In this document: positions 1-22,185 of the stretch, one piece after another
Numbering within the stretch: position 1 is the first letter of the stretch
Layout of the letters: each line of letters opens with the position of its first letter
Source of the DNA: Candidatus Heimdallarchaeota archaeon
GTDB taxonomy: Archaea > Asgardarchaeota > Heimdallarchaeia > Hodarchaeales > Hodarchaeaceae
Reading direction: 5' to 3'
Assembly: GCA_011364965.1 (NCBI GenBank)
Contig: RDOB01000002.1
Coordinates: 480,001 to 544,000, forward strand
DNA: 64,000 nt
Translations under genes and position numbers: made by a program
The notes under the pieces: generated by a model
The model's input: only the letters and a program-made list of their open reading frames with translations
Databases searched by the model: none
What the model was told of the DNA's origin: nothing

Positions 1-1921
1 AATAATAAAAACTGTTTATTCTTATTAAATTAAAGAATTTAAGAAGACCCAAAGGAAAATCGTTTCCCTTTTCGATCTTAGTTTTAAGAAGTTTAAGCAA
101 TGGAAATATTGATTCTACGTTCTCTTTCATAGCAGGATAACGGATCCCCACACAAGCCATGACTAAACCCAAATTACTTCTCTTATTTTTCCAGTTGAAA
201 GCTTCTGTGTTATCTTCATACCAATAGAACATTCGAGTTTCATTTAATGCAGTTAAATTAGCAAAATCAAGATACTTATCCTCTCCTGTAAGGTTATATA
301 ATTCAGTTAAGCCAGCAACTCCATAAGCAAGTTCTAAAGGTTCCCAAAATAATTCATCAGGAGAGAAACTGATAAATTTATCTGCAGCCTTTCGTGCTTC
401 AGTTAAATATACTGAATCAGAGAATAAAGAATATGCTTGGATCATAATATAGATGTGAATTCCTAAGCAGGCATAATTCTTAGCAATAAGTGTCCAATCC
501 ATGTTCTGTTTTCCTCGATGATCTATATAGGATCTTAATCTTCCTTCGTCCTTTTCAAGGGCAATTTTAAGAGGTTGAAGCGAAAAAGGATCGTAAAAAG
601 CTGTGATCTCATAACCATGCTTTTCTACGAATTCAATTGATTTATTAGCCATATTTCTAAAGGTTTCGATGTAAGTATTTTTCTCACCTAAAATGAGGGA
701 TTGTAGCCGAATTAACCATGCGAAACGTAAAATAGGTTCGAAAAAGTACCAAGAATCCCCTATTGATATGCGAGAAGGTTTTATAATTTTAATTTGCATA
801 TTCTCCTGATCAATGATTAGACCGTTATACAAGTAATTCTCTTTCTCATCAATGAAGTCCTTTACAGCAGAGATTGTGCGTCTTATGTGATTTTCCTGTT
901 GTTTGTTACTATGCAATTTTAAGAAGAGAATCCAAGGAGGAAGAATGTCCAACATAGTCATAGTTTCTGCTGCAAATTGGGATTTTTTTATCCCCTTTCG
1001 ACGTTGCTTTTCAGATTCATCTTGTACATATGCGAAGTATTTGGGAGCCTGCGGGTCAACCCAGCAATATTTCTCTTTTAATAAGTCGTTGATGCATTGT
1101 TGGCTAAAGTAAGTCCATGTCAAGTCTTTTTGGGGAAGATTTTGAGGAAAAGGAATAAAGCTAGGTAGTAATTCAAAACTGCGAGTAACCAGATTACGAA
1201 CAGCTTCCCATTGATTGGAAATATTTTCATGATATTCTTGTGAAATAAGAAAATTATAGTTTAAACGATTTTGAGGAGGAATTTTTACTTGTTTTGGTAA
1301 TTGAACCCGATTAAGCAATCCAAATACACCTTCAGGACGAAAGGCACATTCATAAATTGAGAAACGCTCAATCGTCTCTGGATTCATCCATTGCATTTCA
1401 GAAAAATCTACAAAAAAGTAAGTGGATAATGATGAGTTAGTATTCCATAAGTAACAAGCAGGCATATCATTGGATTTCCATTCATCTGTGTGAGGTGTAT
1501 GGCGCGTAGGTTGGTTAACAAAAATATGGTTTTTATCCTGTCTGGAAGAAGTGGAGGTCATTAAAGTAACTTCAGGAGCAAATTTATCGATCATTATTTC
1601 TTTCTTGGTAATAAGAGTAATTTTAAAATAAAACCAGAGTGTCTCTTTTAGAAATTTTTCAACACTTAATTCAATAATGTATCGATTATCGGTAAGAGAG
1701 GAAATAATTATATCAATTTTTTCTAAAGATGAATTATTTTCTATAATTTTTAGTTTAGTTTTTCCAAATTGCTTTACAAACGAACTTATATTCCAATTAA
1801 AATTATTTATCCACACTCTATTATGTAATAGCTGCAATGAAATATTGTACTCCTCTTCCATTTTAATAAGTTGGATTTTATGACTTTGAGTCATAATTTC
1901 TGATATGATTTGCGTTCGCAT
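1..1921 (-). CDS. Uncharacterised DSWYF-motif (alpha/alpha)-barrel, six-hairpin glycosidase-like protein, cytoplasmic; 3' end runs off the window (>=640 aa); paralog of 16768-18717
   Basis: Not in the ORF track. Hand translation from ATG 1921 (alternative 1894) stays open to base 2: MRTQIISE...LTWTYFSQQCINDLL...GDSWYFFEP...NYACLGIHIYIMIQAYSLF...LFWEPLELA...YPAMKENVESI...LKFFNLIRINSFYY. These blocks are colinear with the 16768-18717 protein. No signal peptide seen. Confidence 0.85.
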   Translation of the reverse strand, partial: MRTQIISEIMTQSHKIQLIKMEEEYNISLQLLHNRVWINNFNWNISSFVKQFGKTKLKIIENNSSLEKIDIIISSLTDNRYIIELSVEKFLKETLWFYFKITLITKKEIMIDKFAPEVTLMTSTSSRQDKNHIFVNQPTRHTPHTDEWKSNDMPACYLWNTNSSLSTYFFVDFSEMQWMNPETIERFSIYECAFRPEGVFGLLNRVQLPKQVKIPPQNRLNYNFLISQEYHENISNQWEAVRNLVTRSFELLPSFIPFPQNLPQKDLTWTYFSQQCINDLLKEKYCWVDPQAPKYFAYVQDESEKQRRKGIKKSQFAAETMTMLDILPPWILFLKLHSNKQQENHIRRTISAVKDFIDEKENYLYNGLIIDQENMQIKIIKPSRISIGDSWYFFEPILRFAWLIRLQSLILGEKNTYIETFRNMANKSIEFVEKHGYEITAFYDPFSLQPLKIALEKDEGRLRSYIDHRGKQNMDWTLIAKNYACLGIHIYIMIQAYSLFSDSVYLTEARKAADKFISFSPDELFWEPLELAYGVAGLTELYNLTGEDKYLDFANLTALNETRMFYWYEDNTEAFNWKNKRSNLGLVMACVGIRYPAMKENVESIFPLLKLLKTKIEKGNDFPLGLLKFFNLIRINSFYY

Positions 1922-2082: not shown

Positions 2083-2103
2083 ACCCAGATATCAGATATG
2101 GGT
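2083..2103. promoter_or_regulatory. Candidate operator ACCCAGAT-N5-ATATGGGT in a divergent promoter region
   Basis: Near-perfect 8-5-8 inverted repeat; the same motif recurs in three other intergenic regions of the locus. Confidence 0.65.
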
Positions 2104-2198
2104 AAGTAAAATTGCATAAAATTTAATAAATAAACTTGAAAGTAAGTTATAACTCGTTAAATGATAGAATATTATCTGCTCAAGTGCCTGTGATTCCT

Positions 2199-4388
2199 AT
2201 GAGTTTAGAAAGTAATGTTAAAGATTCTTCTGTAGATCCTGAATACGAATCAAGCGAATCTTATGAAGAATATATGAAACCTGAGACTGGATTAACCAAA
2301 AGATCTTTGATTATTGCATTAGCTACCCTCTTGATTTGGGGATTAATAAATATCTTTGCAGGGAATTTTGGAGATGCCCCTACGATATTGATTGAAGAAA
2401 TGTCAATCCTTTTTCCATTTTTCTTACTAATTTTTGGTTTACAAGCCCTTGAAAGAATTCGATTACGCGGTATGAAATTAACACGACAGGAATTATCCTT
2501 TATATGGGCAATGTTGATCGTAGGAATACCTATTACTAGTTCTGGATTTTTAGCTGGTCGTTTATTATTAAATGCAATGTTCACTCACCAAGATGAGGCT
2601 CTTTCCCCTCCAAGCGGTTGGGGTCCCTTTTTCTGGGCACCATCGCTGGAAGAAATCAATCGTGCATATGAGGGTGGCGCATTTCCTAATTATGCAGAGT
2701 GGGTTCTTCCACTTGCATTTTGGGCCGTTACTTGTATTGCTTGGGCATTTATGTGCTTGTTTTTAATACAGATTTTTCGAAAACCATGGGTAGATGTTGA
2801 ACGTCTAGCGTTTCCCCTTGCTCAGCCAGTACAAGAGCTACTTGAAGCTCCCTATGCTCCCTTGAAAGAGAAAAATAAGAGATATTTCTGGTTTGCCATA
2901 GGAGCGTTATTAGGTGTCATATACGCTTCATTTGAATTTTTAAGATCTGTGTTTCAAATTGATTTATTTGAAAATATAGATATTTTTGGATTTGTACCTG
3001 GTAGAGCCTGGATGATAGATATTGACCTAGGGAGCGAGTTTGGATTGAGTCAATTTTTACCAAATGCTTACTTAGAAGCTCGGCCTGAACCTATAATGAT
3101 TGCTGCTTTTCTTCTAGTTTCACTTAATGTTCTTCTATCAGGGTTGATTTTCTATTTATTGTTCTGGGTTCTCATTCCAGTTTTTGAGACAGAATTCGGA
3201 ATTATTGATCCCCCTACGATAGCTGCGTCTCCTCCTGATATTGATCTCGGATTTGCACGTTTAGGAGGAATCTCTCTATTTGCTTTCGGAGAATTTGGTA
3301 TGTTCTTTGGAATAGCTATTTGGGCAATAATTCTCCAAAGAAAGTATCTTGCTCGTAGTATTCGTGCAATTTGGGATCATTCAGTTATTGACGAATCAGG
3401 GGAACCAATTTCCTACAGAACTGCTTATTTAGGTTTGATTATTTGTACACTGGTATTCTTTCTCGCTCTAATATTAAGCGGGTCCCCCATCAATGGTGCT
3501 ATTTACACTGTTCTTTTTCTAATAATTGGCTATATTGCTGGGGCGCGGGTTCGGGCAGAAACTGCAGGAGCTGGAATAGGTCATCCTGGATACATACATT
3601 TACATGGTATGCATTCTGTTAGAGTGATTATAGGGACTGAAAACGCGCAAACCCCCGGTTTCTATGTTACTTCTATGTGGATGCAATTTTTCCAAAGAGA
3701 TGCTGCTCCTACAAGTCCAGCAATCTCCGCTTTGGAGGCATATAACGTTGCTCGTGTAACAAATACACGCACGAGGGATATTTTCGTAGCCCAAAGTGTC
3801 GGAATTATCTCAATTATCCTTTTATGTATCGTTGCATGGCCGATTCTTGCATATGCTTATGGATTAGCAAATGAATGGTCAGCTGAGGCAGGACATAATC
3901 TGGATTATAGTGAGTCATCACTTGAGCTAGCCACTGGAGGATTCTGGGATCATAGATCATATGGAATAGAAATTTGGGGTCAAGCGATTTTAGGAATGAT
4001 ATTTGCCATTGGATTGAATGTCCTTCGATTAAGTCGTCCTTGGTTACCTTTAAACCCCATTGTTGCTCCTATTCTACTTAGTATGCGTGGTCCATATTGG
4101 TGGCTTCCAATGTTGATTGCTTACTTAATCAAATTTACAACAGTAAGAATTGGAGGAACCCGTGCTTATACTACATATCTACTTCCTGCAGCAGTAGGGT
4201 ACTTGGTAGGTACTGCTGGTATCTGGGGATATTCACTCGTTTCTGTTATGATTCCAACTATATTCCCATTCTTGTTATTCAATCCATTGATTGAAACACT
4301 CTATTATAATGTACTTGTACTCGGGATTTGGGCTTTAGCTATCATTACAATAATAGGCTTCTTAGTATATAGATTGACACGAAGATAG
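2199..4388 (+). CDS. OPT-superfamily-like multi-pass membrane transporter (DUF6785/DUF6784-like)
   Basis: About 730 aa with many TM helices. RKPWVDVERLAFPLAQ resembles the W-x3-E-R-L-x-F/Y-P motif of this group; also R-x-R-A-E-x-G. Start moved to ATG 2199 (track gives TTG 2136). Confidence 0.75.
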   Translation: MSLESNVKDSSVDPEYESSESYEEYMKPETGLTKRSLIIALATLLIWGLINIFAGNFGDAPTILIEEMSILFPFFLLIFGLQALERIRLRGMKLTRQELSFIWAMLIVGIPITSSGFLAGRLLLNAMFTHQDEALSPPSGWGPFFWAPSLEEINRAYEGGAFPNYAEWVLPLAFWAVTCIAWAFMCLFLIQIFRKPWVDVERLAFPLAQPVQELLEAPYAPLKEKNKRYFWFAIGALLGVIYASFEFLRSVFQIDLFENIDIFGFVPGRAWMIDIDLGSEFGLSQFLPNAYLEARPEPIMIAAFLLVSLNVLLSGLIFYLLFWVLIPVFETEFGIIDPPTIAASPPDIDLGFARLGGISLFAFGEFGMFFGIAIWAIILQRKYLARSIRAIWDHSVIDESGEPISYRTAYLGLIICTLVFFLALILSGSPINGAIYTVLFLIIGYIAGARVRAETAGAGIGHPGYIHLHGMHSVRVIIGTENAQTPGFYVTSMWMQFFQRDAAPTSPAISALEAYNVARVTNTRTRDIFVAQSVGIISIILLCIVAWPILAYAYGLANEWSAEAGHNLDYSESSLELATGGFWDHRSYGIEIWGQAILGMIFAIGLNVLRLSRPWLPLNPIVAPILLSMRGPYWWLPMLIAYLIKFTTVRIGGTRAYTTYLLPAAVGYLVGTAGIWGYSLVSVMIPTIFPFLLFNPLIETLYYNVLVLGIWALAIITIIGFLVYRLTRR

Positions 4389-4405: not shown

Positions 4406-7400
4406 ATGGTAAAATTTCAATCTCTCCCAACCTTTTTTTTTTAGCTTTCATTTTATCGGGTATAATATTTATCAATATTGTAACCATTGAATTAAATTCA
4501 AGTAATAAGTCTGTCAGCAGAAATGCGCAGTATTCGCAACAAACTTCTGTAAATTTTTCAGATTTAGCTGATAACATAAATTCAACATATATTAAGAATA
4601 TTGAATCTCATATTTCAAATTTCACCAATTTTGGGAGTCGTTATACTGGATATCCTGGTTATCAGGATGCTGCTACTTATATTCAGAATTTCTTCCTTCA
4701 AGAAGGATTGTCTGACGTCGAAACCCTAACTTATCCCTTAATTTCTCCTATAGATTTTGGATCTGCAATTGAAATGAACGGAGCGAATTATACTGCCTAT
4801 ACGCTTGCTCCAAATTCTGTTCATACTTGTCAGACTCCCAAAGGAGGTATCAGGGGAATTCTTATAGATGGAGGTTCAGGTGAATATGCTGAACTTGATG
4901 GAAAGGAAATTAAAGATTCTATAGTATTATTAGAATTTAATTCGGGGAATAATTGGATAAATGTTGCAAGTTTGGGAGCTAAAAGTGTGATATTTCTTCC
5001 CCCCAAAGATACAAACAGATTCGAAGCAGCTGTAAAAACAATTGAAATCCCATTGAATTTTCCTCGACTATATATCGATAATCAAACGACTGCCTTATCT
5101 CTCAAGACTCTTGCTTTAACGCAAGAAAATGAGGTAATAATTCATTCTAACATGAGATTTGCGTCAATAGAAGCAGTAAATATTGTTGGTATCCTTCCTG
5201 GTAGTTCTACTGATCAAATAATTATATCCTCATATTTCGACTCAAACTCAATAGTTCCATCATTATCTCCAGGTGCTGATGAGTCATGTGGAATATCCAC
5301 ACTACTTGAATTAATTCGAATTTTTAATGATTATAACATTACACCAGAGAAAACAATTGTTTTTTTGGCTTTTTCTGGCCATAATCAAGCCGCAGCAGGT
5401 GCGAGAGAATTTGTTTACCAAAATTATGACAAATTAAATGTCGACTCAGGTATTAAGTTGTTCTTGTCGCTTGATTTTTCTGCTTCGAACAATAAAATAG
5501 GTATAAATCCGTATGGCTATCTCTATAGCTTTAAATTGCAATTTACTACTTCAAATAACCTTGAGGGGAGACTAAAAGACGTCGGAGAAGATTATCTTAT
5601 TAATTATGCTTCTGAAATCCGCAGTCAAACTGGATATACATTTGAGGTCAAATCCTTTATAAATAAACAACGATTTGAAGATATTGCTCCAATTATTTTT
5701 GTGGGTGATCAAGAACCATTTATCGCGAGTAATGTTCTGGGATTATCCTTCTTCACAATGGAATCTTATCGAATGCGCTATAACACGCCTTTTGATATTC
5801 CCTCCCAATTAAATATTGATTTATTAAAAGCTCAAGTAATCTATTCAGTATGTGCTATCACAGAACTTGTCAATGAGGTTAATCTAGATAGTATATTAGA
5901 TTTACAACATAAAGAATTTTCTTTAAAGCACACCACGCATGTTGGATTTGGTAATGTTGAGGGTTATTGTAAAGAGTATAATGAGAGTACTGCATGGCTT
6001 TCAAATGTCCCTAATGCTTTAATTCGTGTGACAACTCTCAATGAAGCCACACGTCAAAAAGGAATTTATGCTTATTACACTAAAACAGATGAAACTGGTC
6101 ATTTTCAAGTAAGGGGAGTATCATCATCTCAACCAGATTACCCCCTGAATTTTATAGCTGAAGGATATGTTTTTGATGCTGAAGGTATGTTGATTAAAGG
6201 TATCAATCTTGGAACACATGGCAAAACATTCAAGAATTCAAATAAATTAACGAATAAGAACACGTTTATCTACCCTACAGTGTTTAAATGTGGTACTCTA
6301 TCATTATTTGGAGTAATTCACCCATACAACCAAATTGAGGTTGCTGATCTTCTTTCATATCATATCTTAGATCCAGAAACAAGAACACTCTTTTTTTCCT
6401 ATGGTTATATAGGAACTAAAACTGTAAGTCTTGTCTTTATAAGTCCTGAAAAACCTTCAATCCTTGTTGGTAAGCTTCCTGATGGAGTTCTAGGAATTTA
6501 TATCACAAATTCTTCTTCGGATAATTTGCGAGGAAATGGTTTATCTGTATCATATGGGGAATTTCGCAATATTGGTCTACATGCTTTTCAATCGTCTCGC
6601 GATCTTCAAGCAATGACGCAAACTTATGTAAACCTTTATTCATCATATAATATCTATGATTCACTGGTTGACGATACATCGCAAAGAGCTGCAAATCTTA
6701 TTCAAGCCGCGAATACATTCTATTCCAATTTAGAATATTCCAAAGCCATAGTGACAATTAAACAAGTTCAAACATGGTCATATGATGCTTTCCAAGGCTC
6801 AAGACGGGTAATCGAGGATGGAACCTCCACAACAATCTTTTTTGCCATCCTACTTCTTCCATTTGCTTTTGTTATGGCTTCTTTGTTATTTGAATTTAAC
6901 TCTGGTGCAAAGAAAGTAGTTGTGACTAGCGGGATTTATGGGTTAACATTATTATTCTTTTACTTCATTCATCCCGGATTGCATTTGTCTTCAAACATTT
7001 TTATGATTATTATTGGGATAATTGCGATCATTTTCGTTTTTCCTGCCCTTTACATGATTTACCAAGAGGGATTTGACTTTCTTCGCAGTTTACGAGTCAA
7101 GCTTATTGGAGCTCATTTTGCGGATACGAGCCGTACATCCACAATACTTATAGCGATGAGTACAGGTATTTCTAGAATGAAGAAAAGAAAAGGTCGTACA
7201 ATTATAGCGCTATCAGGAATTGTACTAATAACTTTTTCTTTAACCTTATTTACTTCAGCTAGTACGCAAGTTTCAGTATTTGCTCGTGCAGAAAATCTCT
7301 CTACACCCTATAATGGAGTATATTTGAGAACTAAAGACTGGACTACTCCTTTATCGGAACAGCTTTTATCCACATTGGAAGTTCAGTACGGAAATGAATC

Positions 7401-8835
7401 TAGGATTTCAACAAGATGGTGGTTTTATCCTCCTAGCCAACAAGCAAACGGATTTGTCAATATTTCAACTCTCTCTGGAGATGCTAGTTGGGAGGGTGAA
7501 GCGATATTAGGTCTTACTGCTATAGAACCCCTATTCCAACCTGTTTTAACTGCTTTGTCCTCTGGAAATTGGTTTACTAATTCATCTGCCCATGAGTGTA
7601 TTTTATCTGATTACTCTGCCGAAATTTTGGGTATTAATATAAACGACACAGTTCTTTGGGCTGGTAGTGAATTTAATGTCGTGGGGGTGGTTGATGGACT
7701 AATTTTTGATGGATTTAGGGATTTTGATAATGAAGCATTACCTCCCAAAAACAGGCGTGCTCCCTCTCCTAATGTTCATATCAAAACCAATCAAACCTTT
7801 TTGTTACCTTCGGAAACAGCTCGTCTATTTGGTGCATCTCTCTACTCAATTTCAATTCTTGCGGAATCTGATCAAGCACTTGAGATTGCAGAAACTTCAT
7901 CTGCAACTTATGGACGTTATTTGGAGATTAGATCGGGTTTTAATGGTCAAGTTACAATACATAAAAGGGTAATACAGAATTTGGGACAAGGACTAGCAGA
8001 AATGGGGATTCCTTTGGCTATAGCTATTTTACTTATGATAAACACATCAGTTAGTACCGTTTATGAATCAAAAAAAGAAATCGCCATATTTACATCTCTT
8101 GGTTTAGCTCCATTCCACATCGCAGGACTATTTCTTGCTGAATTTCTAGTTTATGCTGTAATTGGTGCTGTGATAGGTTACTTAGGAGGTATTACCTCTG
8201 CTGTAACTTTATCTCTACTTGGATTATTTCCTGAATCATTAGCCATCAACTACAGTTCAGGGTCTGTAATCAATGCATTAATGTTTGGAATCTTCGGTAT
8301 CTTGATTAGTACAATATATCCTCTTAGAATATCTGCAAAAATGTCCGTTCCTTCTGTTAAACGTGCGTGGGAGCTTGAAACATCTCCAGAAGAAGATGGA
8401 AAGACATGGATTATTCCTCTTCCCTTTGTAGCTGCAACAGAAGAAGAAGCTGAGGGTATAATTGAATTCTTACGAGAGTTTTTCTATATTTATGAATCTG
8501 AGAGTGTTGGAGGAGCTTTTTTTGCACAAGAAATACAATCTAGAATCACAACAACTCCAAGAGTTGAGAAACATCTTCGAGCTATTGTAACATTAGCTCC
8601 ATTTGATATGGGATTGAAGCAAAAAGTAGATCTCTATACATATCTGGACGAAATTAACTTTAGATACGTATTTATCATCAATTTAGAAAGAATGGAAGGC
8701 ATTCTATCAGCTTGGGAAACATCTGTACGACGATTTGTCGATGCAATACGGAAACAGCTCTTAATTTGGAGAAGTTTACCTCAAGAAGAGAAAATTAGAA
8801 AATCAACAGATTTTCGAAAACACATTACAAAATAA
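4406..8835 (+). CDS. Large membrane protein: signal anchor, degenerate M28-fold/PA domain, beta-sandwich, TM bundle and FtsX-like permease; frameshift at T10 (4433-4442)
   Basis: The track ORF (4708-8835) frame is open back to 4399 and encodes the conserved GSRYTGYPG..AATYI and a hydrophobic anchor. The only nearby ATG (4406) is one base out of frame across the T10 run. FtsX motif ESKKEIAIFTSLGL present. Confidence 0.8.
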
Positions 8836-8850
8836 TTAAGAGGGTATAGA

Positions 8851-10737
8851 ATGACGGCAAGTATTGAAACCATTGAAGCAAATAGTACAAAAGAAACCTA
8901 TCAAAGCGGATTGACTTGGAGGGTTGGCCTAGCAGTTATCTATTCAGCTTTAATTATCCAACCAGCAGCAATTTACTTGTATTTCGTAACTAATAATTGG
9001 TTTATAGGAGCAGTTTTAAACACTACAATAGTGCTTTTTGCTGTTCTAGCGAAAATGGCTGACAATCCATTAACCAAGCAAGAAGTGTTTATAATGATTA
9101 ACGTCACTTCTACTGCTTTAGGTATGGAAATGATTGTTCAATTGGTCTTTAATTACTATTTGAAAAATCACCCGATAACCATATCTACCCTTATAGATGG
9201 AGTCTCCCTTAGTACCTTAATTCCTAATTGGTATGCACCAGAATGGTTTGGCCCAGTTAGAACCATGTTTAATCCAGTTTTTATCTTCCCCCTTATATTA
9301 TTAATGTTTATAGGTATAATCTCTAAGGCTACAGATATTTCTCTAGGCATAATTTTCAATTATCTTTATACTAAAGTTGAAGTCCTTCCTTTTCCAACTG
9401 CAGAAGTCGAAGCTGAGCGTTCAAAATCATTAACTTGGGAGGATAAAAGAAAATTACAAATTTTTTCGATGAGTGCAATTATTGCAAGTGTAGTGGGAAT
9501 AATTTTGTATGCTTTCCCGTTAGTAATGGGTTTAACCATTATACCTATACCATGGTTTGATTTTAATTCAGCAATTGAAGGAATTATACCTGGAGCTTCG
9601 TTTGGTATTGCTACAGACATAATTACCTTCGCTACAGCTTTTATTTTACCTTTCAACGTTGTACTCAGTATATTAATTGCTTCAGTTTTTGTGAATATTA
9701 TTATGAATCCTGTATTAGTTTCAATGGGACTACTTCCTCGTTGGGAACGAGGAATGAGTCTATTAGACACATTTAATAATTCTCAATTAGATTTCTGGCT
9801 TCCTTGGACTGTAGGACTTTTGATAAGCGCTGCGCTGATTCCTGTTCTGAGAAATCCTAAAATATTCTTTACCACAATAAGGGATCTGCGGAAATTGAGT
9901 CGAGGAAAGGGAGAGGGAGTAGAGAATCCTCCAAGGCTGAGTATTTTGATATTCTTTTTTCTTCTCGGAACGGTAGGATCCGTTGCCATAGCAATGTTTT
10001 TAATTCCAAATTTATCTGTCCAGCTGATAATAATATTGCTTATATTAACAGTGGGGTGGAGTTTCATTTCAACGTTAACCATGGCTTATGCTTTTGGAAT
10101 CACAGCAAATCTACCTGTTATACCATATATCAAGGAATCAGTTTTTGTGGCTGCAGATGTTCCACTTGGAGGAGAAATTTGGTTTGTCCCTTTGATAATT
10201 ACTCAAGGTGGGGCTGGATGGGTTGCAACTTTCAAAACTGCAGATTTAACCTATACCAAACGAGGGAGTTTGATAATTGCGTCGTATTTTGCTACTTTGG
10301 TTGCTTGGACTGCTGGTCTTTTTTGGGTATCTGCATTGTTGTCAATCTCTGAAGTTCCCTCTGTGATTTTTCCAGTACCATTTTGGCCATTGGAGGTTGG
10401 CCGGTCGGTAACGTTTGTTAGTAATCCAACAGTCGTAATAAATCCTTTAATTCTTGGAATGACTTTTATTATAGCATTAATTCTATATATAATTGAATGG
10501 CAAGCGATTTTACCAATATCAGTCATATCTATTGCTGTTGGAACTACCACTGCAATCCCCTCTGCTATCACATTATTTCTAGGTGCATTATTAGGTCATG
10601 TTTTGAAGGGTCGAATGAAGAAATGGGATTCTGACCGTGCAATAGTTGTTGCTGGTCTTGGTGCTGGATTGGGGATAGTTATCTCTCTTGCAACCTTCTT
10701 ATCTTTAATACTAAACACAATAGCTTTACCTTTTTGA
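8851..10737 (+). CDS. OPT/YSL-family oligopeptide transporter-like membrane protein
   Basis: 628 aa, many TM helices, N-terminal GLTWR, LTKQE and EVLPFPTA motifs typical of the OPT family. Confidence 0.75.
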   Translation: MTASIETIEANSTKETYQSGLTWRVGLAVIYSALIIQPAAIYLYFVTNNWFIGAVLNTTIVLFAVLAKMADNPLTKQEVFIMINVTSTALGMEMIVQLVFNYYLKNHPITISTLIDGVSLSTLIPNWYAPEWFGPVRTMFNPVFIFPLILLMFIGIISKATDISLGIIFNYLYTKVEVLPFPTAEVEAERSKSLTWEDKRKLQIFSMSAIIASVVGIILYAFPLVMGLTIIPIPWFDFNSAIEGIIPGASFGIATDIITFATAFILPFNVVLSILIASVFVNIIMNPVLVSMGLLPRWERGMSLLDTFNNSQLDFWLPWTVGLLISAALIPVLRNPKIFFTTIRDLRKLSRGKGEGVENPPRLSILIFFFLLGTVGSVAIAMFLIPNLSVQLIIILLILTVGWSFISTLTMAYAFGITANLPVIPYIKESVFVAADVPLGGEIWFVPLIITQGGAGWVATFKTADLTYTKRGSLIIASYFATLVAWTAGLFWVSALLSISEVPSVIFPVPFWPLEVGRSVTFVSNPTVVINPLILGMTFIIALILYIIEWQAILPISVISIAVGTTTAIPSAITLFLGALLGHVLKGRMKKWDSDRAIVVAGLGAGLGIVISLATFLSLILNTIALPF

Positions 10738-10754
10738 GAATAGAATCGACAATA

Positions 10755-11438
10755 TTAGATTCTACTCTCAATCATTTTTGTGACCTTTTCTAAATGGGTC
10801 GTTGTGATTTCCAACGCTTGAATGATTGAATCAATAGTCATTACGAATCTCTTTTTTCTTACGATTCCTTCAAGGTATTTCTCAAGTGTGATATTCCAAA
10901 TAATTGATGAAGGAGATTTGAAGTATTTCTTGAATTCTAATAGATATTGTTCGGGATCTTTCGTATTTATCAGTGGAGAATAAAGCTGAATATTCAAACT
11001 TTCTGGTTTAATATTCTTCAAGTGCGTCTGAAGGTCAATATCCTGCGTTAACAGTTCAGAAAGTGCATCAGAGATCATTAAATTCGGTATTTCTTGTTTT
11101 AAGTATGTTAAGCTAGAAGAACTTGTGAAATAGTAATATTTCTTTATAACTCCTCTTTGCTTTAATTCACACTCCACTCCTTTTAGACCTTGAAATAAAA
11201 ATTTATCTTGATTGGTAAACTCTTCTTCAGAAACGAGAGTTTTTGAAGCTATAAATTGCCATGATTTATCAGCAGAATATGAAAGACGTTTAGGTCTTAA
11301 AAGTATTGAATCAAACGAAGATCTATCAAATGGAATTAGTACACTCCCTCCAATATTTGAAATTTGTAATTCGCCATATTTACCCAGATATTTCGCAAAT
11401 GGGACAAGTAAGATATCGGAATAGGAATCTGTCATCAT
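10755..11438 (-). CDS. Hypothetical soluble protein
   Basis: 227-aa ORF filling the gap; no recognisable motif. Confidence 0.7.
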   Translation of the reverse strand: MMTDSYSDILLVPFAKYLGKYGELQISNIGGSVLIPFDRSSFDSILLRPKRLSYSADKSWQFIASKTLVSEEEFTNQDKFLFQGLKGVECELKQRGVIKKYYYFTSSSSLTYLKQEIPNLMISDALSELLTQDIDLQTHLKNIKPESLNIQLYSPLINTKDPEQYLLEFKKYFKSPSSIIWNITLEKYLEGIVRKKRFVMTIDSIIQALEITTTHLEKVTKMIESRI

Positions 11439-11514: not shown

Positions 11515-11535
11515 ACCCATATCAATTACCCATTT
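11515..11535. promoter_or_regulatory. Candidate operator: ACCCATAT-N5-ACCCATTT (two half-sites in direct orientation)
   Basis: Exact ACCCATAT half-site plus a 7/8 copy, between divergent genes. Confidence 0.5.
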
Positions 11536-11613: not shown

Positions 11614-13836
11614 ATGAGAAATATCAGGTCTGGAATCGTAATTCTTATTTTTTTAAGCTTAATCTCACTTCAAGTATATAATGTCAGTAATAATTTGAGA
11701 GATGACCAAGGTCTTAATTCCCCCCTTCCTTCTCTCAGTACAAAACAAGCTGATATATTAAAGATAGATATTCAAGTAACTGCCCCAAATGGTTATTCAA
11801 TGCAAGGAAATACTCCAATCATATTGAAACTTTCAACTATAGCTGCACAATTACCTGGAGGATACGATGCATTTGGTGATACAACACCTGCAGACTCCAC
11901 TGACAACATAAAATGGACAGGATCTTATGTAACTTATGAAAATGATATTATTCCAAGTCAAGTTGATGATATTGATAGTACGATCGGATATTCTGCTGAT
12001 GATGAATTTTTGTTTCAGCTTCCGAGCGATGTTTCTTTAGCATCAGGTGAATCGACTGATTTCGCACTTTATATTGGTACAGAAGAATTAAATTTACCAG
12101 AGCCGATTTTCCCTGAAACATGTCCTATCTATGACTATCCGGAATTGAAAGAAGTACAACAAAGATTCCCAGATATGCTTGGAACAGTTTACAATCTTGA
12201 TAACGGAAAGATAAGGGTTAGCGCTCTTGTTGATGCTGCTTGGAGTTCTGGCGGTATGTATCATCTTGCTTTAACCGATGAATTAGGTGAAAACACTTGG
12301 GATGCTATTAAACAAGGTTTTCTTGAAGACTGGGAAGCTTGGAAATGGGCTCGTTTTGCTACAGTCGAGCAATTTATAGAACTAAACGATGCTGCAGGTT
12401 CTAATCCCTTTTATTTACCAGATCCAAGTAGAACATCATTGATAAGTGGGCCTGTGAGATGTCGGATACAAATGCGCTCAACTCCTCCTTATGGTAAAGC
12501 TGCTTCATCTTGGGGAACCATTCCAAATCTCTATGGACTTGTTACATATAATCTTTTTGCCAACTTACCGTATGTAGACTATATATTAGATACAACAGGA
12601 TCAGCTAAAGATGAACATCCAACACTAATTATAGAGCTTCAAAACCGGGAATTTAATCCTGGAGGATACGGAAGTCCTTATAAGGGGTTATATTTTCCAG
12701 GATATGGCTGGCAGGATCGTTCACCTGATGATTTGGACACACATATAGCCACATCTTCCGATTTTACTGACCCTTGGTATATTGAAAAATTACCGCCAGG
12801 TGAGATAATGAATCCTGACTGGGCAGATTCTGACAAGCTAGGTGTTGGAATTATTTTTAATGATGCTGGTCTATCTAATATCACATGGAAACGAGGCTCT
12901 GAAAGCGTAAATCTTGTTTATGATGCAGCAGAGATTCCTTTGCATGCGAGATATCTTCCCTATGACGTTACTGTTACAGATGATGCAATATCGTATATGG
13001 AGGCAGCATATGAGGAATGGCTACGACCTGATCCAGATTTCTCCTTTTCTGTTTCTACTGTAAATGAATTACCTTTTGAAGCCATCTTCGTGAGTAGACC
13101 TGATGTTTATTATGACAATAACACTAACCTCATCCAAATTGAGAATATTACGGCTATTTCGACACAACTTGGGGTTATTAATAATACCATTTCTTCCACT
13201 CATACCTATGAGGTGGTAACTGCTCGTCAAAAGACCTCTACGGGACTAACCGGAGATCTTATTTGGAATTCGACAACTTCTTCTTGGGAAGTAACAAATG
13301 TGGATGTTTCTTCATTAGATCTTGAAATAGCCTATACGGTTTTCGCTACATTCCAAATAGGCGAAATCATTGGTAAAAGTCCGTATTCAAAATCCTTTCC
13401 AGAGATTCCTGATATTTATGCACCCACTATTACGAGCGTCATCCAATCACCTATGGCTACCGCAATTATCCGGCACACAGATGAGGTGAACGTCTCTGCT
13501 CTTGTTACAGATGATGATTCAGGAGTTGAGAAAGTCATTTTATCCTATAATAACGGTGAATGGTTCAATATAACAATGTCCTTAATTTCAGGGCTTTATG
13601 TTGGAACAATCCCTCCTCAAGATGAAGGATTAACAATCTGGTACAAAATCATTGCATACGATTATGAAGGAAACTGGAATGATACAGATCTATTTTCCTA
13701 TACAATAGCGATTGAATATCGGCCAGGGCAAGGATTACTTCCATTGCTTGGAATTTCTGCAATTATTATAATTGCAGTAGTAGTTGCCTTGAGAACAATG
13801 GGAATGCATCGCATTAAATACGATCAGGTTGAATAG
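11614..13836 (+). CDS. Secreted, C-terminally membrane-anchored beta-rich surface protein (DUF4861-like N-terminal region plus Ig-like stalk); paralog of 14126-15583
   Basis: Signal peptide; IPSQVDD...DEFLFQLP and GPVR motifs; many NxS/T sequons; C-terminal TM; SD-like GGAGG upstream. Confidence 0.7.
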   Translation: MRNIRSGIVILIFLSLISLQVYNVSNNLRDDQGLNSPLPSLSTKQADILKIDIQVTAPNGYSMQGNTPIILKLSTIAAQLPGGYDAFGDTTPADSTDNIKWTGSYVTYENDIIPSQVDDIDSTIGYSADDEFLFQLPSDVSLASGESTDFALYIGTEELNLPEPIFPETCPIYDYPELKEVQQRFPDMLGTVYNLDNGKIRVSALVDAAWSSGGMYHLALTDELGENTWDAIKQGFLEDWEAWKWARFATVEQFIELNDAAGSNPFYLPDPSRTSLISGPVRCRIQMRSTPPYGKAASSWGTIPNLYGLVTYNLFANLPYVDYILDTTGSAKDEHPTLIIELQNREFNPGGYGSPYKGLYFPGYGWQDRSPDDLDTHIATSSDFTDPWYIEKLPPGEIMNPDWADSDKLGVGIIFNDAGLSNITWKRGSESVNLVYDAAEIPLHARYLPYDVTVTDDAISYMEAAYEEWLRPDPDFSFSVSTVNELPFEAIFVSRPDVYYDNNTNLIQIENITAISTQLGVINNTISSTHTYEVVTARQKTSTGLTGDLIWNSTTSSWEVTNVDVSSLDLEIAYTVFATFQIGEIIGKSPYSKSFPEIPDIYAPTITSVIQSPMATAIIRHTDEVNVSALVTDDDSGVEKVILSYNNGEWFNITMSLISGLYVGTIPPQDEGLTIWYKIIAYDYEGNWNDTDLFSYTIAIEYRPGQGLLPLLGISAIIIIAVVVALRTMGMHRIKYDQVE

Positions 13837-13973: not shown

Positions 13974-13994
13974 ACCCATATAATTGATACGGCT
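13974..13994. promoter_or_regulatory. Candidate operator ACCCATAT-N5-ATACGGCT
   Basis: 17/24 identical to the 2082-2105 site; upstream of 14126. Confidence 0.6.
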
Positions 13995-14125: not shown

Positions 14126-15583
14126 ATGCGAAAGAATAAATTAGCTTTTTCATTCTTGTTTGCTGCGATCTTTTTGTCACTCTTTGTTGTACCCACAATC
14201 GTTAGTGCTGCAGAGGGTAAAAAAGTAGCTGTGTTCAAAGTGACCGCAGGAACAGATGATATAGTAGCAAAAACCCCCATCGTTATCAAAGTTGAGGATT
14301 TACCAGAAGGGGTTACTGCATTAGCAACTGCAGTTGTATATGATGGAAGTGATGCTTTACCCACTCAAGCAGATAATTTGTACGGTGATAGTGCCATTGA
14401 TGAAATAGTATTCCAATTACCCGAAACGATTGCTGCAGGTGAATCTGCATCTTTTACACTCTATGTGGACGAAGAAGCATCTAATAATGGACAAAATGCT
14501 AGCGCTACCATTGATCTTGCACATGAGGATCATTATAATGAAACTTATGAGAATTGGCTACCTGCTGCTTATGTAGCAGGTTATAAGAATGCTTCTGGTT
14601 ATGCACCAGCAGTCGATGAAGTTGGTGAAGTGATTTGGGTTGAAACTGACTGGGCTATTCTATGTTTATATGTATCTGCTGGTTGGCGTCAGGGAACATG
14701 GAAGCATGCTTACATTAAAAACTCCAATCATGATGCATTAATGGCAAATTATGATCCTTGGACTGATTGGCGTTGGCAATGGCTTCGTTTTGGATACGAA
14801 TCCGATTATGGTTGGCATAACGGAGATTACCCAGATGAGGTTATGATTGCTAAAGTAGGACCTGTAAGAGCTGTAGTACAGACAAAAACTGGAGTTGGTT
14901 ATGTTGGACCCACAGGAAACGTTGATAATCTAAAATTACTCCGAACCTATACAATTTATAGTGGTTTCCAAGGTTTGAGGCAAAATATCCGTATGACTGG
15001 TTCGGATGCTGCTCAAGCTGCCACTGATTTTACTGCCCTGTATAATGGAGAAAACCTCACATTCGTTAGTAAATGGATGGACTTCGGTGTAGAAAGCACA
15101 GATGATCCTTGGGTTTATGTAGCCACTGGAAATAAATACGATCGAGTATATTCTCCAGGAACACCTAATGCTGGAGGAAATTCAAACCGTCAGAATGGTG
15201 ATAACCAGTATCTTGAACTAGCTGAGATGGAAGATTCGTATTTTGCTATGTACAGTAGTACTACCAATAATGGATATGTTATCAACTTCGGACTCAATTT
15301 TACCTGGATCATGGATTACGTTGTTGGTATTGATTGGTCGGATGGAGAAATTGTCGTTAAGCAAGAATACGATAAATTCCCATTAACTGGTGTTGAGCGA
15401 GTTTTCATTCCGTTTGGCGGATCTACCACTGATGTTGAGGCAAAAATTGATGGTTTGAATGCTATGTGGACTGCTGACTTTTCCTATGAAGTTACCAAAC
15501 CTGCTCCCGCTCCTGGATTCGAGCTTTTCGTTGGATTGTTTGCCTTCGCTGCTATAGCAATCTTTTATAAAAAGAGGAGATAA
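14126..15583 (+). CDS. Secreted PGF-CTERM (archaeosortase-type) surface protein, DUF4861-like; paralog of 11614-13836
   Basis: Signal peptide ending VSA-A; LPTQADN...DEIVFQLP; GPVRA; C-terminus APAPGFELFVGLFAFAAIAIFYKKRR is PGF + TM + basic tail. Confidence 0.8.
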   Translation: MRKNKLAFSFLFAAIFLSLFVVPTIVSAAEGKKVAVFKVTAGTDDIVAKTPIVIKVEDLPEGVTALATAVVYDGSDALPTQADNLYGDSAIDEIVFQLPETIAAGESASFTLYVDEEASNNGQNASATIDLAHEDHYNETYENWLPAAYVAGYKNASGYAPAVDEVGEVIWVETDWAILCLYVSAGWRQGTWKHAYIKNSNHDALMANYDPWTDWRWQWLRFGYESDYGWHNGDYPDEVMIAKVGPVRAVVQTKTGVGYVGPTGNVDNLKLLRTYTIYSGFQGLRQNIRMTGSDAAQAATDFTALYNGENLTFVSKWMDFGVESTDDPWVYVATGNKYDRVYSPGTPNAGGNSNRQNGDNQYLELAEMEDSYFAMYSSTTNNGYVINFGLNFTWIMDYVVGIDWSDGEIVVKQEYDKFPLTGVERVFIPFGGSTTDVEAKIDGLNAMWTADFSYEVTKPAPAPGFELFVGLFAFAAIAIFYKKRR

Positions 15584-15846: not shown

Positions 15847-16743
15847 CTAAAGAGCTTGCAGGAGTTTTGTTTTGTCAATGAAAGCGACTGCTATACATTT
15901 ATCAGCAGCTCCATAATAAACCAAAAATTTCTTATCTTTCTCGACCACTCCACAAGTAAAACAAACATTTGGTACGTCTCCTTCCTTTTCGTAATCTAAT
16001 TCAGGCTTTAAAATCGGATCCTCGATAATACTAATAATCTTCGTGGGATCCTTCAGATCAAGAAGCATTACTCCTAAACTATAATGTAATTCCTTACTTA
16101 CACCATGATAGAAATTCACCCATCCTTCATCTGTTTTAATTGGGGGTGCTCCTGCACCTACTTTGAAATCTTGCCAAGAGTTTTTGATAGGAGAGAAGAA
16201 TTTTTTATGATCCGTCCAATTTTTCAGATCTTTTGAGTATGCAATCCACATATCAGGTTCTGGTGCTCGATGCATTAGTGCATAACGTCCATTTATTTTC
16301 TCTGGAAATAATACTCCATCTTTATCACGATACTCATTAATTACTGTTCCATATTTTTTGAATGTTTTGAAGTCAGAGGTTGAAGCAATTCCTATATGGA
16401 AATCCACATCCCCTGCGGGAACAGGTGTTCGAACTGCGGTATAACAGATGTAATATTTTCCTTCCAACCATGTTATGCGGGGATCCTCGACTCCATACTT
16501 TTCAAATGGTTCCTCTGGTACCATTACGGGTTCTGGTCGTGCTTTAAAATTATAACCATCATCACTCTCTGCCAAACCTAAAGTGGAAATATACGTTTCA
16601 TAATTTCCAATTGCACGATATAATAAAATTATTTTTTCTTTGAATAGCGTTGCTCCGCAGTTAAAAACTGCACCTTGTTGCCATTCATAATTAGGATTCG
16701 GTTTCAATACTGGATTTTTCTTATAACGCTCTAAATATACCAT
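15847..16743 (-). CDS. Glycoside hydrolase family 130 protein, probable beta-mannoside phosphorylase
   Basis: NPVL, AVFNCGA, LLYRA, GVEDPRIT, DKDGVLFPEKING, HR, KVGAGAPP, YHG, PNVCF and YYGAAD motifs; basic phosphate-site residues appear retained. Confidence 0.92.
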   Translation of the reverse strand: MVYLERYKKNPVLKPNPNYEWQQGAVFNCGATLFKEKIILLYRAIGNYETYISTLGLAESDDGYNFKARPEPVMVPEEPFEKYGVEDPRITWLEGKYYICYTAVRTPVPAGDVDFHIGIASTSDFKTFKKYGTVINEYRDKDGVLFPEKINGRYALMHRAPEPDMWIAYSKDLKNWTDHKKFFSPIKNSWQDFKVGAGAPPIKTDEGWVNFYHGVSKELHYSLGVMLLDLKDPTKIISIIEDPILKPELDYEKEGDVPNVCFTCGVVEKDKKFLVYYGAADKCIAVAFIDKTKLLQAL

Positions 16744-16767: not shown

Positions 16768-18717
16768 TCATTTTTTTGGTTGTAATATCTTTACAAAGAA
16801 TATTGTAAGTACAATTAAAGATCCTATTAGAAAGATTATGATTGGCACTGATTCTTCAAGCGAAGGATAATGACTTTGGGGAGTTGTTGTTGCAGTTGTA
16901 GTACTTGTTTCTGTTAATATTGCGCTTGATGTAGCAGTTGTTAACCAATTGGTTTCCTTTGGAGTATATTCGAAAGAAATCATATTATCGGAATTAATTG
17001 TCAAATAAGATGATCCTAAACTAGGAAGAGTTATATTAAATGCCTCTCCTGGTTGGATGTTCTCTAATAAAAGAGACCCATTCGCATAAATATTATAAGG
17101 GGCATTCATTTGCTTTAAAGTGAATTCTAAGGTCTTTGATTCGGTATATGGATTAAAAACAATAAATTGTCGTCGATTTGGAGTGGTTGGATAGCCACGA
17201 TCAAATATATTAAGATTTAGAATCATTGCATTCCTATCAGATGATTCAGCAAGGGCTTCAAATAGTAACATCAGCCAAAAAGTTTCCCCAGCACCATAGA
17301 TCTCTTTACCATTGTAGCCAGTTAAATAACGATAACTTTCTGGTTCATATTCTCTCACGGCATAATAATCGATATCCTCATATGGGATATACTGCAGACT
17401 TGTAGGTCCAAAAGGTCTTTCCTGTTCATCAGGGATATTCGGAGAGAAAAAGTAGAAATGATTGATCCTATTAAGATTGAAGATTTTTAGTGGTTCAATG
17501 GCTTTAAAATTTGGGATTTTATATAAGAATTTGAATAAATCTACCCAAAAAATTATACTTTCGATATTTTCTTTTGCAGCAGGTGCATTAATTCCCCCAG
17601 TTTCTTTAGGATTATAATAAGGTGAATAAAGGCCGTCCCGCCACGTTAAAGGAAGCCAATCACTTGATTGAGGATAAAAATTTTCTAATCCAGTTGAGCC
17701 ATGGTTATAGTACATTGCTTGCTGTTCTGCATAAAAGAATTCTAAAGCTAATTGAACAAAGTCTCTAGGAGTATCGATAATGTCATCAATTAAATCATAT
17801 TGAATTAATTTCGCAGATGCCGCAACTGCAGCTGCTAACTCTTGTGGTTCATATAATAGCATATAAGGTGGTTGAACCAAACGCATTGTAGCTAAAATTT
17901 TATCTGCTTCCTCTAATAAAGTGATATTTCCTGTTAGTTCATATGCAGTTATCAAACTATATGCTAATAAACCTCCAGTACAGTAGTTTACAGTATTATA
18001 TCCACTTGCAGCATATTTAGTTATGGGGTCAACAAATTGAGGAAAGAGATAATTAAAATTATGTGCCATATCTATGGCTGACTGTAAGCTCCCAAAATAG
18101 GGTTCACCTAATACAGTTTCATTAGAAATCGAATAAAGATGTCCCCATTTTAGTACCGAGTTTTCCATGAAATACCAACTATCATGCTTTCCCTCATTTG
18201 GACGATTAGTCGATTGTTTAGTAATAGGATTATAATAATCGGGTAAATCATTTATCATGTCCTCTAATATATTCATACGAGATGTATTTGATGGAAATAA
18301 ACGCAAATATTGATATAACGGCCAGATTACATCCATTGTACTCATTAATTCAACAATTTCACGTATTCTATCAGCACCTCCCCATCCGTCTGTACCTTTA
18401 ACATAGGGCCTGAATCCCTTGATATTAGTAATAGGTTCAATTATCCAGCTAAGATCAAAGATCATTAAATCTTCTATACTCTTCTCCGCATAATCTGTCC
18501 ATGATGTTGCATTTTCTGGAAAATTACTATAACTTGGCAAAGTTTCTAAATCCGTCTTCTTTTGAGAAATCATTGCTTCCCAAGTGGTTTGAAAAGTGTC
18601 AGAGCTTTGATCAATTTGAAAAAAATTAGAACTCGGAGTAATAAACGGAAGAATAAAAATACAAAGGAATCCTCCGGTAATAAATATTGTAGTTGTTTTT
18701 CTATTCACGTTAATCAT
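16768..18717 (-). CDS. Secreted, membrane-anchored DSWYF-motif (alpha/alpha)-barrel glycosidase-like protein
   Basis: N-terminal hydrophobic signal; HDSWYF; AYELTG...LEEA helical-hairpin repeat; Thr-rich linker; C-terminal TM plus KK. Confidence 0.75.
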   Translation of the reverse strand: MINVNRKTTTIFITGGFLCIFILPFITPSSNFFQIDQSSDTFQTTWEAMISQKKTDLETLPSYSNFPENATSWTDYAEKSIEDLMIFDLSWIIEPITNIKGFRPYVKGTDGWGGADRIREIVELMSTMDVIWPLYQYLRLFPSNTSRMNILEDMINDLPDYYNPITKQSTNRPNEGKHDSWYFMENSVLKWGHLYSISNETVLGEPYFGSLQSAIDMAHNFNYLFPQFVDPITKYAASGYNTVNYCTGGLLAYSLITAYELTGNITLLEEADKILATMRLVQPPYMLLYEPQELAAAVAASAKLIQYDLIDDIIDTPRDFVQLALEFFYAEQQAMYYNHGSTGLENFYPQSSDWLPLTWRDGLYSPYYNPKETGGINAPAAKENIESIIFWVDLFKFLYKIPNFKAIEPLKIFNLNRINHFYFFSPNIPDEQERPFGPTSLQYIPYEDIDYYAVREYEPESYRYLTGYNGKEIYGAGETFWLMLLFEALAESSDRNAMILNLNIFDRGYPTTPNRRQFIVFNPYTESKTLEFTLKQMNAPYNIYANGSLLLENIQPGEAFNITLPSLGSSYLTINSDNMISFEYTPKETNWLTTATSSAILTETSTTTATTTPQSHYPSLEESVPIIIFLIGSLIVLTIFFVKILQPKK

Positions 18718-18845: not shown

Positions 18846-18866
18846 AACTGTATTTATTATATGGGT
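18846..18866. promoter_or_regulatory. Candidate operator AACTGTAT-N5-ATATGGGT
   Basis: Exact right half-site and 5/8 left half-site, upstream of the 18717-to-15613 operon. Confidence 0.55.
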
Positions 18867-22048: not shown

Positions 22049-22185
22049 AAGAGAAAACTGTCCTTCTAGTTCTTATATAAGTAAGACATAGAATATTTTT
22101 CAAATAGTTATCCATATAGGGAGTTTAAAAAATGATATAACTGGTTTTTTTTAACTATTTTGTTGAATAAAAGGGTAGAAGGCTT

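Follow-up and report, generated by a model that had tools for sequence, protein, structure and literature searches.

A six-hairpin protein family with a predicted cytoplasmic and a predicted surface-anchored member beside GH130 in a Hodarchaeales archaeon, a candidate unclassified glycoside hydrolase family

The locus described here lies in a stretch of 64,000 nucleotides (C9:480001-544000 of the host genome, G000) of a Candidatus Heimdallarchaeota archaeon of the order Hodarchaeales, hereafter the window. Two paralogous genes on its minus strand are the subject: gene A, the open reading frame (ORF) at window 1-1921 (-), and gene B, which encodes the 649-amino-acid (aa) product of 16768-18717 (-). 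Measured against Pfam, NCBIfam and the sequences of the Protein Data Bank (PDB), their products probably form a new family, although both its fold and the logic of the system are familiar ones. Coordinates of the features are collected in Table 1.

Within the window, gene A is an open frame of 640 aa on the minus strand, running from 1921 to the window edge. The gene continues past the window start; the complete product (P0001) has 811 aa and is encoded at G000:C9:479486-481921. The ORF described in the first-pass annotation, which was made from the letters of the window, is real, and its extent is corrected here from a fragment cut by the edge to the full protein. Upstream of the ATG the frame stays open for about 8 more codons and no further, so no signal peptide is hidden there. 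At full length A and B align over about 570 columns with 27% identity (BLASTP E=5e-34; A 223-761, B 31-536), and the window fragment of A matches B at E=2e-16. All seven colinear block pairs that the annotation had listed occur in order in the full-length alignment, and the E value of that alignment answers its refuting condition of a non-significant pairwise alignment. As a further correction to the original comparison, an additional N-terminal domain of A, about 220-230 aa, is missing from B. No copies other than A and B were detected by tblastn in the host genome (2.97-Mb assembly, 87% complete).

AlphaFold2 (AF2) models were obtained with a pLDDT of 86.3 and a pTM of 0.91 for A and of 87.3 and 0.84 for B. 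In the model of A, residues 1-230 form an N-terminal beta-sandwich, an (alpha/alpha)6 barrel spans about 237-711, and residues 713-811 make up a second beta-sandwich. The model of B consists of a transmembrane (TM) helix (6-26), a disordered segment (26-39), a barrel (46-486), a beta-sandwich (490-573), a further disordered segment (596-618) and a TM helix (620-645). Barrel and C-terminal sandwich of B are like those of A; the N-terminal domain is not present in B. Near-invariant residues of this domain in the family alignment of A include W96, Q137-P138-T139, N151-D152, W178 and R186.

The sorting signals of the two proteins differ. A hydrophobic N-terminus is absent from A and from about 28 archaeal A-type orthologues. 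B begins with a hydrophobic helix and ends, behind a Thr-rich linker, in a TM helix that has a basic tail; this anchor pattern is kept in at least 30 full-length archaeal B-type orthologues. In bacterial B-type proteins the C-terminal anchor is lacking and the N-terminus resembles a signal or lipoprotein sequence. Twin-arginine (TAT) signals, also matched by the TAT_signal model, are found in a bacterial clade whose proteins have about 760 aa. At the level of sorting signals, a cytoplasmic location of A and a cell-surface location of B are well supported predictions. The earlier proposal of one copy on each side of the membrane agrees with these patterns and with their conservation in orthologues.

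Table 1. Features of the locus (window coordinates)
Feature	Position	Strand	Remarks
A, window part, residues 1-640 of 811	1..1921	-	predicted cytoplasmic; without signal peptide or TM helix
A residues 237-640, window part of (alpha/alpha)6 barrel	2..1213	-	holds E319, D325, D389, E395, E527, E530, K599, E600, E603, R634
A residues 1-230, N-terminal beta-sandwich	1232..1921	-	AF2 model and alignment; 5no8 aligns from residue 11
ATATGGGT within ACCCA...TGGGT inverted repeat	2096..2103	+	divergent A / DUF6785 intergenic region
DUF6785/DUF6784 polytopic membrane protein, candidate transporter	2136..4388	+	divergent from A; arrangement recurs in sister genome
Membrane protein with M28-like, MacB periplasmic-core and FtsX domains	4708..8835	+	
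628-aa protein, no family match	8851..10737	+	syntenic 637-aa gene in sister genome
227-aa protein, no family match, possible regulator	10755..11438	-	syntenic 226-aa gene in sister genome
740-aa candidate surface protein, weak Ig-like domain match	11614..13836	+	
485-aa surface protein, DUF4861 N-terminal match, Heimdall-CTERM sorting signal	14126..15583	+	
GH130, 298 aa, without signal peptide	15847..16743	-	starts 24 bp downstream of B, same strand
B (P0002), 649 aa, surface-anchored paralogue	16768..18717	-	
B residues 620-645, C-terminal TM anchor	16783..16860	-	preceded by disordered Thr-rich linker 596-618
B residues 490-573, C-terminal beta-sandwich	16999..17250	-	AF2 model
B residues 46-486, (alpha/alpha)6 barrel	17260..18582	-	invariant E123, D129, D179, E185, E290, E293, K382, E383, E386, R417, E447, E478
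B residues 6-26, N-terminal hydrophobic helix (signal peptide or anchor)	18640..18702	-	
ATATGGGT upstream of B	18859..18866	+	

Hundreds of six-hairpin structures match the two models at Z>=8 (top Z 22.6). For each model independently, alpha-mannanases of glycoside hydrolase (GH) family 76 rank first in VIA-align: Z 21-22.6, root-mean-square deviation (rmsd) 3.5-4.2, 300-333 aligned residues and 10-12% identity for A; Z 20.0-20.4, rmsd 3.3-3.9 and 323-334 aligned residues for B. Identity of A and B to the GH76 structures is 8-13% in all, and the lead of GH76 over other six-hairpin families is small. Structures matched are BT3782 (4mu9), BT2949 (4v1s/4v1r), BT3792 (4c1s), Bacillus circulans Aman6 (4d4a) and Salegentibacter GH76A (6shm). 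The (alpha/alpha)6 barrel is shared with these endo-alpha-1,6-mannanases; unlike them, A and B have about 100 residues of insertions in the barrel and a C-terminal beta-sandwich, to which A adds the N-terminal one. After GH76 follow polysaccharide lyase (PL) family 27, a tail protein of virus SSV19, the MmpH alpha-mannosidase, AGE-type epimerases, GH88, terpene cyclases, GH15 and GH8. The fold check suggested by the first-pass annotation, which had named GH76 and GH88 among the barrels to be compared, returned an (alpha/alpha)6 barrel for both models, with GH76 as the closest solved fold and GH88 among those that follow. As modelled, the family is of the six-hairpin superfold and nearest to GH76, yet the fold does not make it a member of GH76.

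The SSV19 tail protein (PDB 7xdi chain F, archaeal spindle virus) aligns with A 270-811 and B 74-575, over barrel and C-terminal sandwich (Z 19.6-19.8, 343-350 aligned residues, 9-12% identity). The tail of an archaeal virus may therefore carry a related glycan-active module.

The domain order of A (N-terminal beta-sandwich, (alpha/alpha)6 barrel, C-terminal beta-sandwich) is also that expected if A is a glycoside phosphorylase or transglycosylase of GH65/GH94/GH15-like architecture and B a hydrolytic or binding derivative. Cellobiose phosphorylases of GH94 indeed head the Foldseek results by E-value (3.5e-7). Their TM-scores are just 0.24-0.28, with an rmsd of about 25, their VIA-align Z is 14.4 against 22 for GH76, and the GH65 and GH94 models of Pfam are unmatched, so that this reading is regarded as quite improbable. 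TM-scores of the whole A model in Foldseek are generally low (0.16-0.31) because of domain orientation, and VIA-align is needed to resolve the barrel.

The three-domain order is likewise found in the PL27 L-rhamnose-alpha-1,4-D-glucuronate lyase BACCELL_00875 (5no8), the sole solved protein that aligns over nearly all of A, N-terminal domain included (A 11-727; Z 20.5, 474 aligned residues, rmsd 8.4, 10% identity; Z 18.1 with B). Together with the invariant Tyr, Asn, Lys and Arg residues of the family and a DUF4861-like surface protein in the locus, this alignment would fit a polysaccharide lyase acting on a uronate-containing glycan, like PL27 or the toroid-plus-sandwich lyases. With eleven carboxylates and just two basic residues (K599 and R634) among the invariant positions, however, the site would suit an anionic substrate poorly. 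The conserved neighbours, GH130 and GH2 beta-mannosidase, act on neutral mannosides, and neither GH88/GH105 nor KduI-type genes, nor any other uronate pathway, were found in the neighbourhoods examined. At the sequence level PL27 was not matched by the A1 profile (19 sequences) among PDB sequences at E<=10. A lyase is accordingly held to be unlikely.

Conservation was read from two family alignments (19 and 21 sequences), whose most distant members are 25-31% identical. Both subfamilies, A and B, share eleven invariant carboxylates, namely the pairs (A/B) E319/E123, D325/D129, D389/D179, E395/E185, E527/E290, E530/E293, E600/E383, E603/E386, E665/E447, E701/E478 and E710/E487. The two invariant basic pairs are K599/K382 and R634/R417. 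Also invariant are W269, Y298, W391, Y392, N482 and Y697 (A numbering). The motif K599-E600-N601-x-E603 of A corresponds to K382-E383-x-x-E386 of B. The acidic residues of the DSWY, EPxE and KENxE motifs, which had been picked out earlier as shared by the two proteins, are invariant in both alignments; a catalytic role for them is a hypothesis. Eight of the eleven carboxylates lie at -3 to +5 residues of the helix starts 320, 390, 528, 598 and 698 (DSSP string of the A model), which are alternate helix starts of the A barrel. Inner-helix N-termini are where six-hairpin enzymes build the active site.

No His or Cys column is common to A and B in the two alignments, and neither contains a conserved Asp-Asp dipeptide. 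The sole adjacent acidic pair is E665-D666 (E447-D448 in B), late in the barrel, with the Asp 76-79% conserved. The family thus lacks the catalytic hallmarks of AGE epimerases (a pair of His), of GH127/GH146 (a Cys nucleophile with a Cys-rich zinc site) and of GH76 (adjacent Asp residues as nucleophile and acid/base). The invariant Asp-Ser (D389-S390) occupies a fractional position in the barrel similar to that of the GH76 Asp-Asp, judged by aligned ranges only; that D389 might be equivalent to the GH76 nucleophile position is a guess from the same ranges.

Neither A nor B reaches any threshold in Pfam or NCBIfam. The GH76 model (PF03663) gave no match to A or B at E<=1 and none in 19 A1 members at E<=0.1. 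The GH127 model (PF07944) gave only E=0.003-0.09, 12-13 bits for A against a cut-off of 24.9 bits, over one hairpin. Further sub-threshold Pfam matches of one hairpin are to GH9 and the C5-epimerase C-terminus (E about 0.01-0.1 with those to GH127). PDB chain sequences contain no match to A, B or the A1 profile; LanCL1 comes nearest, with a single helix hairpin aligned at E=0.14-0.3. All of these sub-threshold similarities (GH9, C5-epimerase C-terminus, GH127, LanCL1) are treated as six-hairpin background. Searches of the ESM Atlas by features and structure returned unnamed clusters labelled 'hypothetical', followed by one rhamnosidase six-hairpin cluster. In the literature on Hodarchaeales glycoside hydrolases, DUF6785, Asgard GH130 and new GH families with GH130, nothing was found on the A/B family. 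The label of an unclassified glycoside hydrolase or lyase given in the first-pass annotation thus stands in so far as the six-hairpin fold is typical of both and no Pfam, NCBIfam or PDB-sequence family takes the proteins in.

The LanCL1 match and the terpene cyclases and thioester domains that share the fold (Z 14-17) would be expected of a six-hairpin protein that is non-catalytic or does not act on glycans, such as a receptor binding glycans or an enzyme of the LanC or terpene-cyclase type. None of these matches is significant, and there is no conserved Cys or His for zinc binding of the LanC type. The eleven invariant carboxylates speak for sugar chemistry, as do the genes for glycan enzymes next to family members in three phyla, and a non-catalytic or non-glycan role is seen as most unlikely for A and B.

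An exhaustive profile search of 1.84 billion cluster representatives (50% identity) yielded 441 matches at E<=1e-3, 96 of them at E<=1e-30. A-type homologues occur in Hodarchaeales/Heimdallarchaeota metagenome-assembled genomes (48-71% identity) and in Chloroflexi (33-36%). B-type homologues occur in Hodarchaeales (46-62%) and on contigs that are labelled Anaerolineae or are unlabelled and bacterial-looking (up to 61%). The clade of about 760 aa, one member of which is labelled Acidobacteria, is 28-31% identical to B. Distant members are fused to SLH, Laminin_G_3, F5/8-type-C, HpiC1-like, fn3 and Big domains, modules that are usual for secreted glycan-active enzymes and depolymerases.

Two further proteins were rejected as relatives by hhalign. 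The first, with a probability of 1.5%, is a six-hairpin protein of the host (734 aa, L004:691-2895, G000:C9:454038-456242), encoded about 25 kb before the window and unrelated to A and B; it has weak Pfam matches to GlcNAc 2-epimerase, GH88 and GH76 (E 7e-10 to 1e-6). The second, an 856-aa TAT protein of Acidobacteria encoded behind GH130, had been considered as a third paralogue (probability 0.2%).

Between and beside A and B stand the candidate transporters, the candidate surface proteins and the GH130 of Table 1. The best NCBIfam model for this GH130 is beta-1,2-mannobiose phosphorylase, at 319 bits and below the equivalog cut-off of 450. In a sister Hodarchaeales genome the gene order of the locus recurs, and directly upstream of B and GH130 stand GH20, GH2 beta-mannosidase and a second GH130. 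A Chloroflexi operon comprises LacI, a sugar-binding protein, two permeases, GH130, an A-like member and GH2 beta-mannosidase. The order in Acidobacteria is a TonB-type receptor, a TAT-signal member of the family, a GH130 with signal peptide and, last, a protein of 845-856 aa that again bears a TAT signal. This last protein (L006:13419-15989, L007:13404-15941) has no Pfam or NCBIfam match and always stands behind the member and GH130; it is a candidate for a further enzyme of the same pathway.

The conserved adjacency to GH130 is also what would be expected if A and B were oligosaccharide epimerases or isomerases that prepare the substrate of GH130, in the manner of cellobiose/mannobiose 2-epimerase and 4-O-beta-mannosyl-glucose phosphorylase. 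Pairing of an epimerase with GH130 is an established pathway, in which a six-hairpin protein stands by GH130 in a mannoside operon, as in the A/B family. Epimerases and isomerases of the AGE superfamily match both models (Z 15-19, 335-354 aligned residues). Catalysis of the AGE type relies on two histidines; the A and B subfamilies have no conserved His in common, and the GlcNAc_2-epim model of Pfam (PF07221) is unmatched in A and B even at E<=1. A surface-anchored copy, TAT copies beside TonB receptors and fusions to SLH and modules like carbohydrate-binding ones do not fit an epimerase either, and A and B are much larger, multidomain proteins. The epimerase assignment is therefore considered improbable.

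In a maximum-likelihood tree of 70 members, a long stem of 1.21 changes per column (support 100) sets the B clade apart from all others, among which archaeal A is sister to the cytoplasmic A-like proteins of Chloroflexi (support 100). The paralogy of A and B is therefore deep, and each has bacterial relatives of its own. Recent duplication within the lineage was rejected on this tree, and the word 'twin' used for the pair in the first-pass annotation overstates a relationship between members of different deep clades. Eight bacterial-looking B-type proteins (P0049, P0050, P0054, P0055, P0066, P0072, P0076, P0078) nest in the archaeal B clade with support 95-99. They are 58-62% identical to archaeal B, have lipoprotein or signal N-termini and lack the C-terminal anchor; they are called bacterial from signal-peptide pattern and composition, the Anaerolineae label being carried only by related partial sequences. 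Their placement suggests transfer from Hodarchaeales to Chloroflexi/Anaerolineae, or an origin in mis-binned contigs.

Among 201 sampled Asgard genomes the family is confined to the genus of the host, where it occurs in 4 of the 9 other species (0 of 191 genomes outside the genus). In four genomes of the genus, the host and 3 of these 4 species, one strand carries both A and B at a distance of 15-17 kb. To judge by its patchy distribution the locus appears to be accessory, and it was probably acquired horizontally.

The window contains 7 copies of the 8-mer ATATGGGT, where 2.2 would be expected, and 0 of 100 shuffles reached this number. Four of the seven copies stand in promoter-side intergenic regions of the locus, at 11515-11522, at 13974-13981 and at the two sites of Table 1 (2096-2103 and 18859-18866). 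Their placement is consistent with one regulon. The 8-mer is a likely candidate operator for a regulator of the locus, possibly the 227-aa protein at 10755-11438.

The reading preferred here, by a modest margin over doubt, is that A and B represent an unclassified GH family, the surface copy depolymerising a mannose-containing glycan and the cytoplasmic copy trimming the imported oligosaccharide. B, held on the surface by its C-terminal TM helix behind a Thr-rich stalk, would cut an extracellular mannose-containing glycan to oligosaccharides, and these would be imported through the membrane proteins encoded between A and B. Cytoplasmic A would trim the imported oligosaccharide, its conserved N-terminal beta-sandwich probably closing over the pocket. 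The cytoplasmic GH130, co-transcribed with B, would then phosphorolyse the remaining beta-mannoside. Catalysis would proceed by carboxylate acid/base chemistry at the barrel mouth, with D389, E527/E530, E600/E603, E665 and E701 (A numbering) as candidates. The analysis shows the paralogy, the opposite sorting signals, the fold, the invariant carboxylates, the conserved gene order and the linkage to GH130 and beta-mannosidase genes in three phyla; hydrolase activity, the endo/exo split, mannoside substrate, transport route, mechanism and catalytic residues are all inferred. The closest folds are mostly alpha-mannan-active (GH76, MmpH, Dfg5) and the sister genome holds GH20 and GH2 beta-mannosidase; an N-glycan-like or a fungal/algal mannan is therefore favoured as substrate, with low confidence. 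In Bacteroides thetaiotaomicron, GH76 and GH130 genes stand in one mannan locus.

An arrangement of this kind is known from the polysaccharide utilisation loci (PULs) of Bacteroidota, in which a surface endo-enzyme and an intracellular or periplasmic exo-enzyme come from one family, like the proposed outside/inside pair B and A. Further points of likeness are the candidate surface proteins for binding, the candidate importers and the regulatory motif that the genes share. In contrast to those PULs, there is no SusC/SusD pair, and the archaeal host has a single membrane. In place of the PUL's transporters, the candidates are DUF6785/DUF6784 and the M28-FtsX fusion, neither with known function.

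Several observations weigh against the glycoside hydrolase reading. Searches of Pfam, NCBIfam and PDB sequences revealed no characterised family to which A and B could be tied by sequence. Structural similarity falls smoothly, from Z of about 22 for GH76 to 18-19 for AGE-type epimerases and 16-17 for terpene cyclases, so the fold does not fix the chemistry. The catalytic Asp-Asp pair of GH76 is not conserved in the family, and the mechanism is therefore not transferable from GH76. That the carboxylates come together in one acidic pocket is suggested by helix positions only. A six-hairpin protein beside GH130 is the layout of the epimerase and phosphorylase pathway too. Distant members elsewhere stand beside a GT4 glycosyltransferase or GFO/IDH/MocA oxidoreductases, and GH130 is absent from the 11-kb contig of one bacterial B-type gene; the mannoside link may therefore hold for some clades only. 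The contexts of three distant members (P0116, P0134, P0114) are uninformative or unrelated to mannosides.

The locus is not strictly delimited by the two genes. According to the first-pass annotation, A and B bracket it; A forms no strict edge, as an FtsX gene and two ABC ATPase genes on its far side (L001:11087-13168) are also syntenic in host and sister genome. These genes might energise the M28-MacB-FtsX fusion protein. Adjacency of M28-like/MacB/FtsX fusions to DUF6785 membrane proteins is conserved (window 4708-8835; L002:3085-7218 and 19753-22394), and a second copy of the fusion stands beside GH130 and GH4 in the sister genome. The genes beyond B have no relation to the locus; they include those for a RING/zinc-ribbon protein, an amidohydrolase, UDP-glucose dehydrogenase and acyl-CoA dehydrogenase. 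The first of them, directly upstream of B (18914-22048, -), encodes 1044 aa, mostly helical, with a C-terminal double zinc ribbon and a RING-like finger (weak Pfam matches, E about 1e-3). A 297-aa protein at 26820-27713 (+) has an Arf-family small GTPase domain (E 3e-11) and is a typical eukaryotic-signature protein of Asgard archaea.

A more far-reaching version of the proposed glycoside hydrolase role is possible, though rather doubtful. A and B might found a new CAZy GH family acting on a mannosidic linkage that has few known dedicated endo-enzymes or none, and feed GH130, for example as an endo-beta-1,2-mannanase or an enzyme cleaving the core of N-glycan or alpha-mannan. The locus might then be an archaeal single-membrane analogue of a PUL, built on DUF6785 and M28-FtsX and exchanged between Hodarchaeales and Chloroflexi.

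New GH families of the six-hairpin fold are described regularly; nothing in the finding on A and B breaks known principles, and the surprise is moderate. If the activity is confirmed, the proteins would constitute a new GH family of about 440 clusters (50% identity), spanning Acidobacteria, Chloroflexi, Bacteroidota-type multidomain proteins and one Hodarchaeales genus, and would supply the missing depolymerase of a recurrent GH130-centred mannoside pathway. Hodarchaeales are the archaeal order closest to eukaryotes. For the host, the locus would amount to a full catabolic system, outside and inside the cell, for a complex glycan in an Asgard archaeon.

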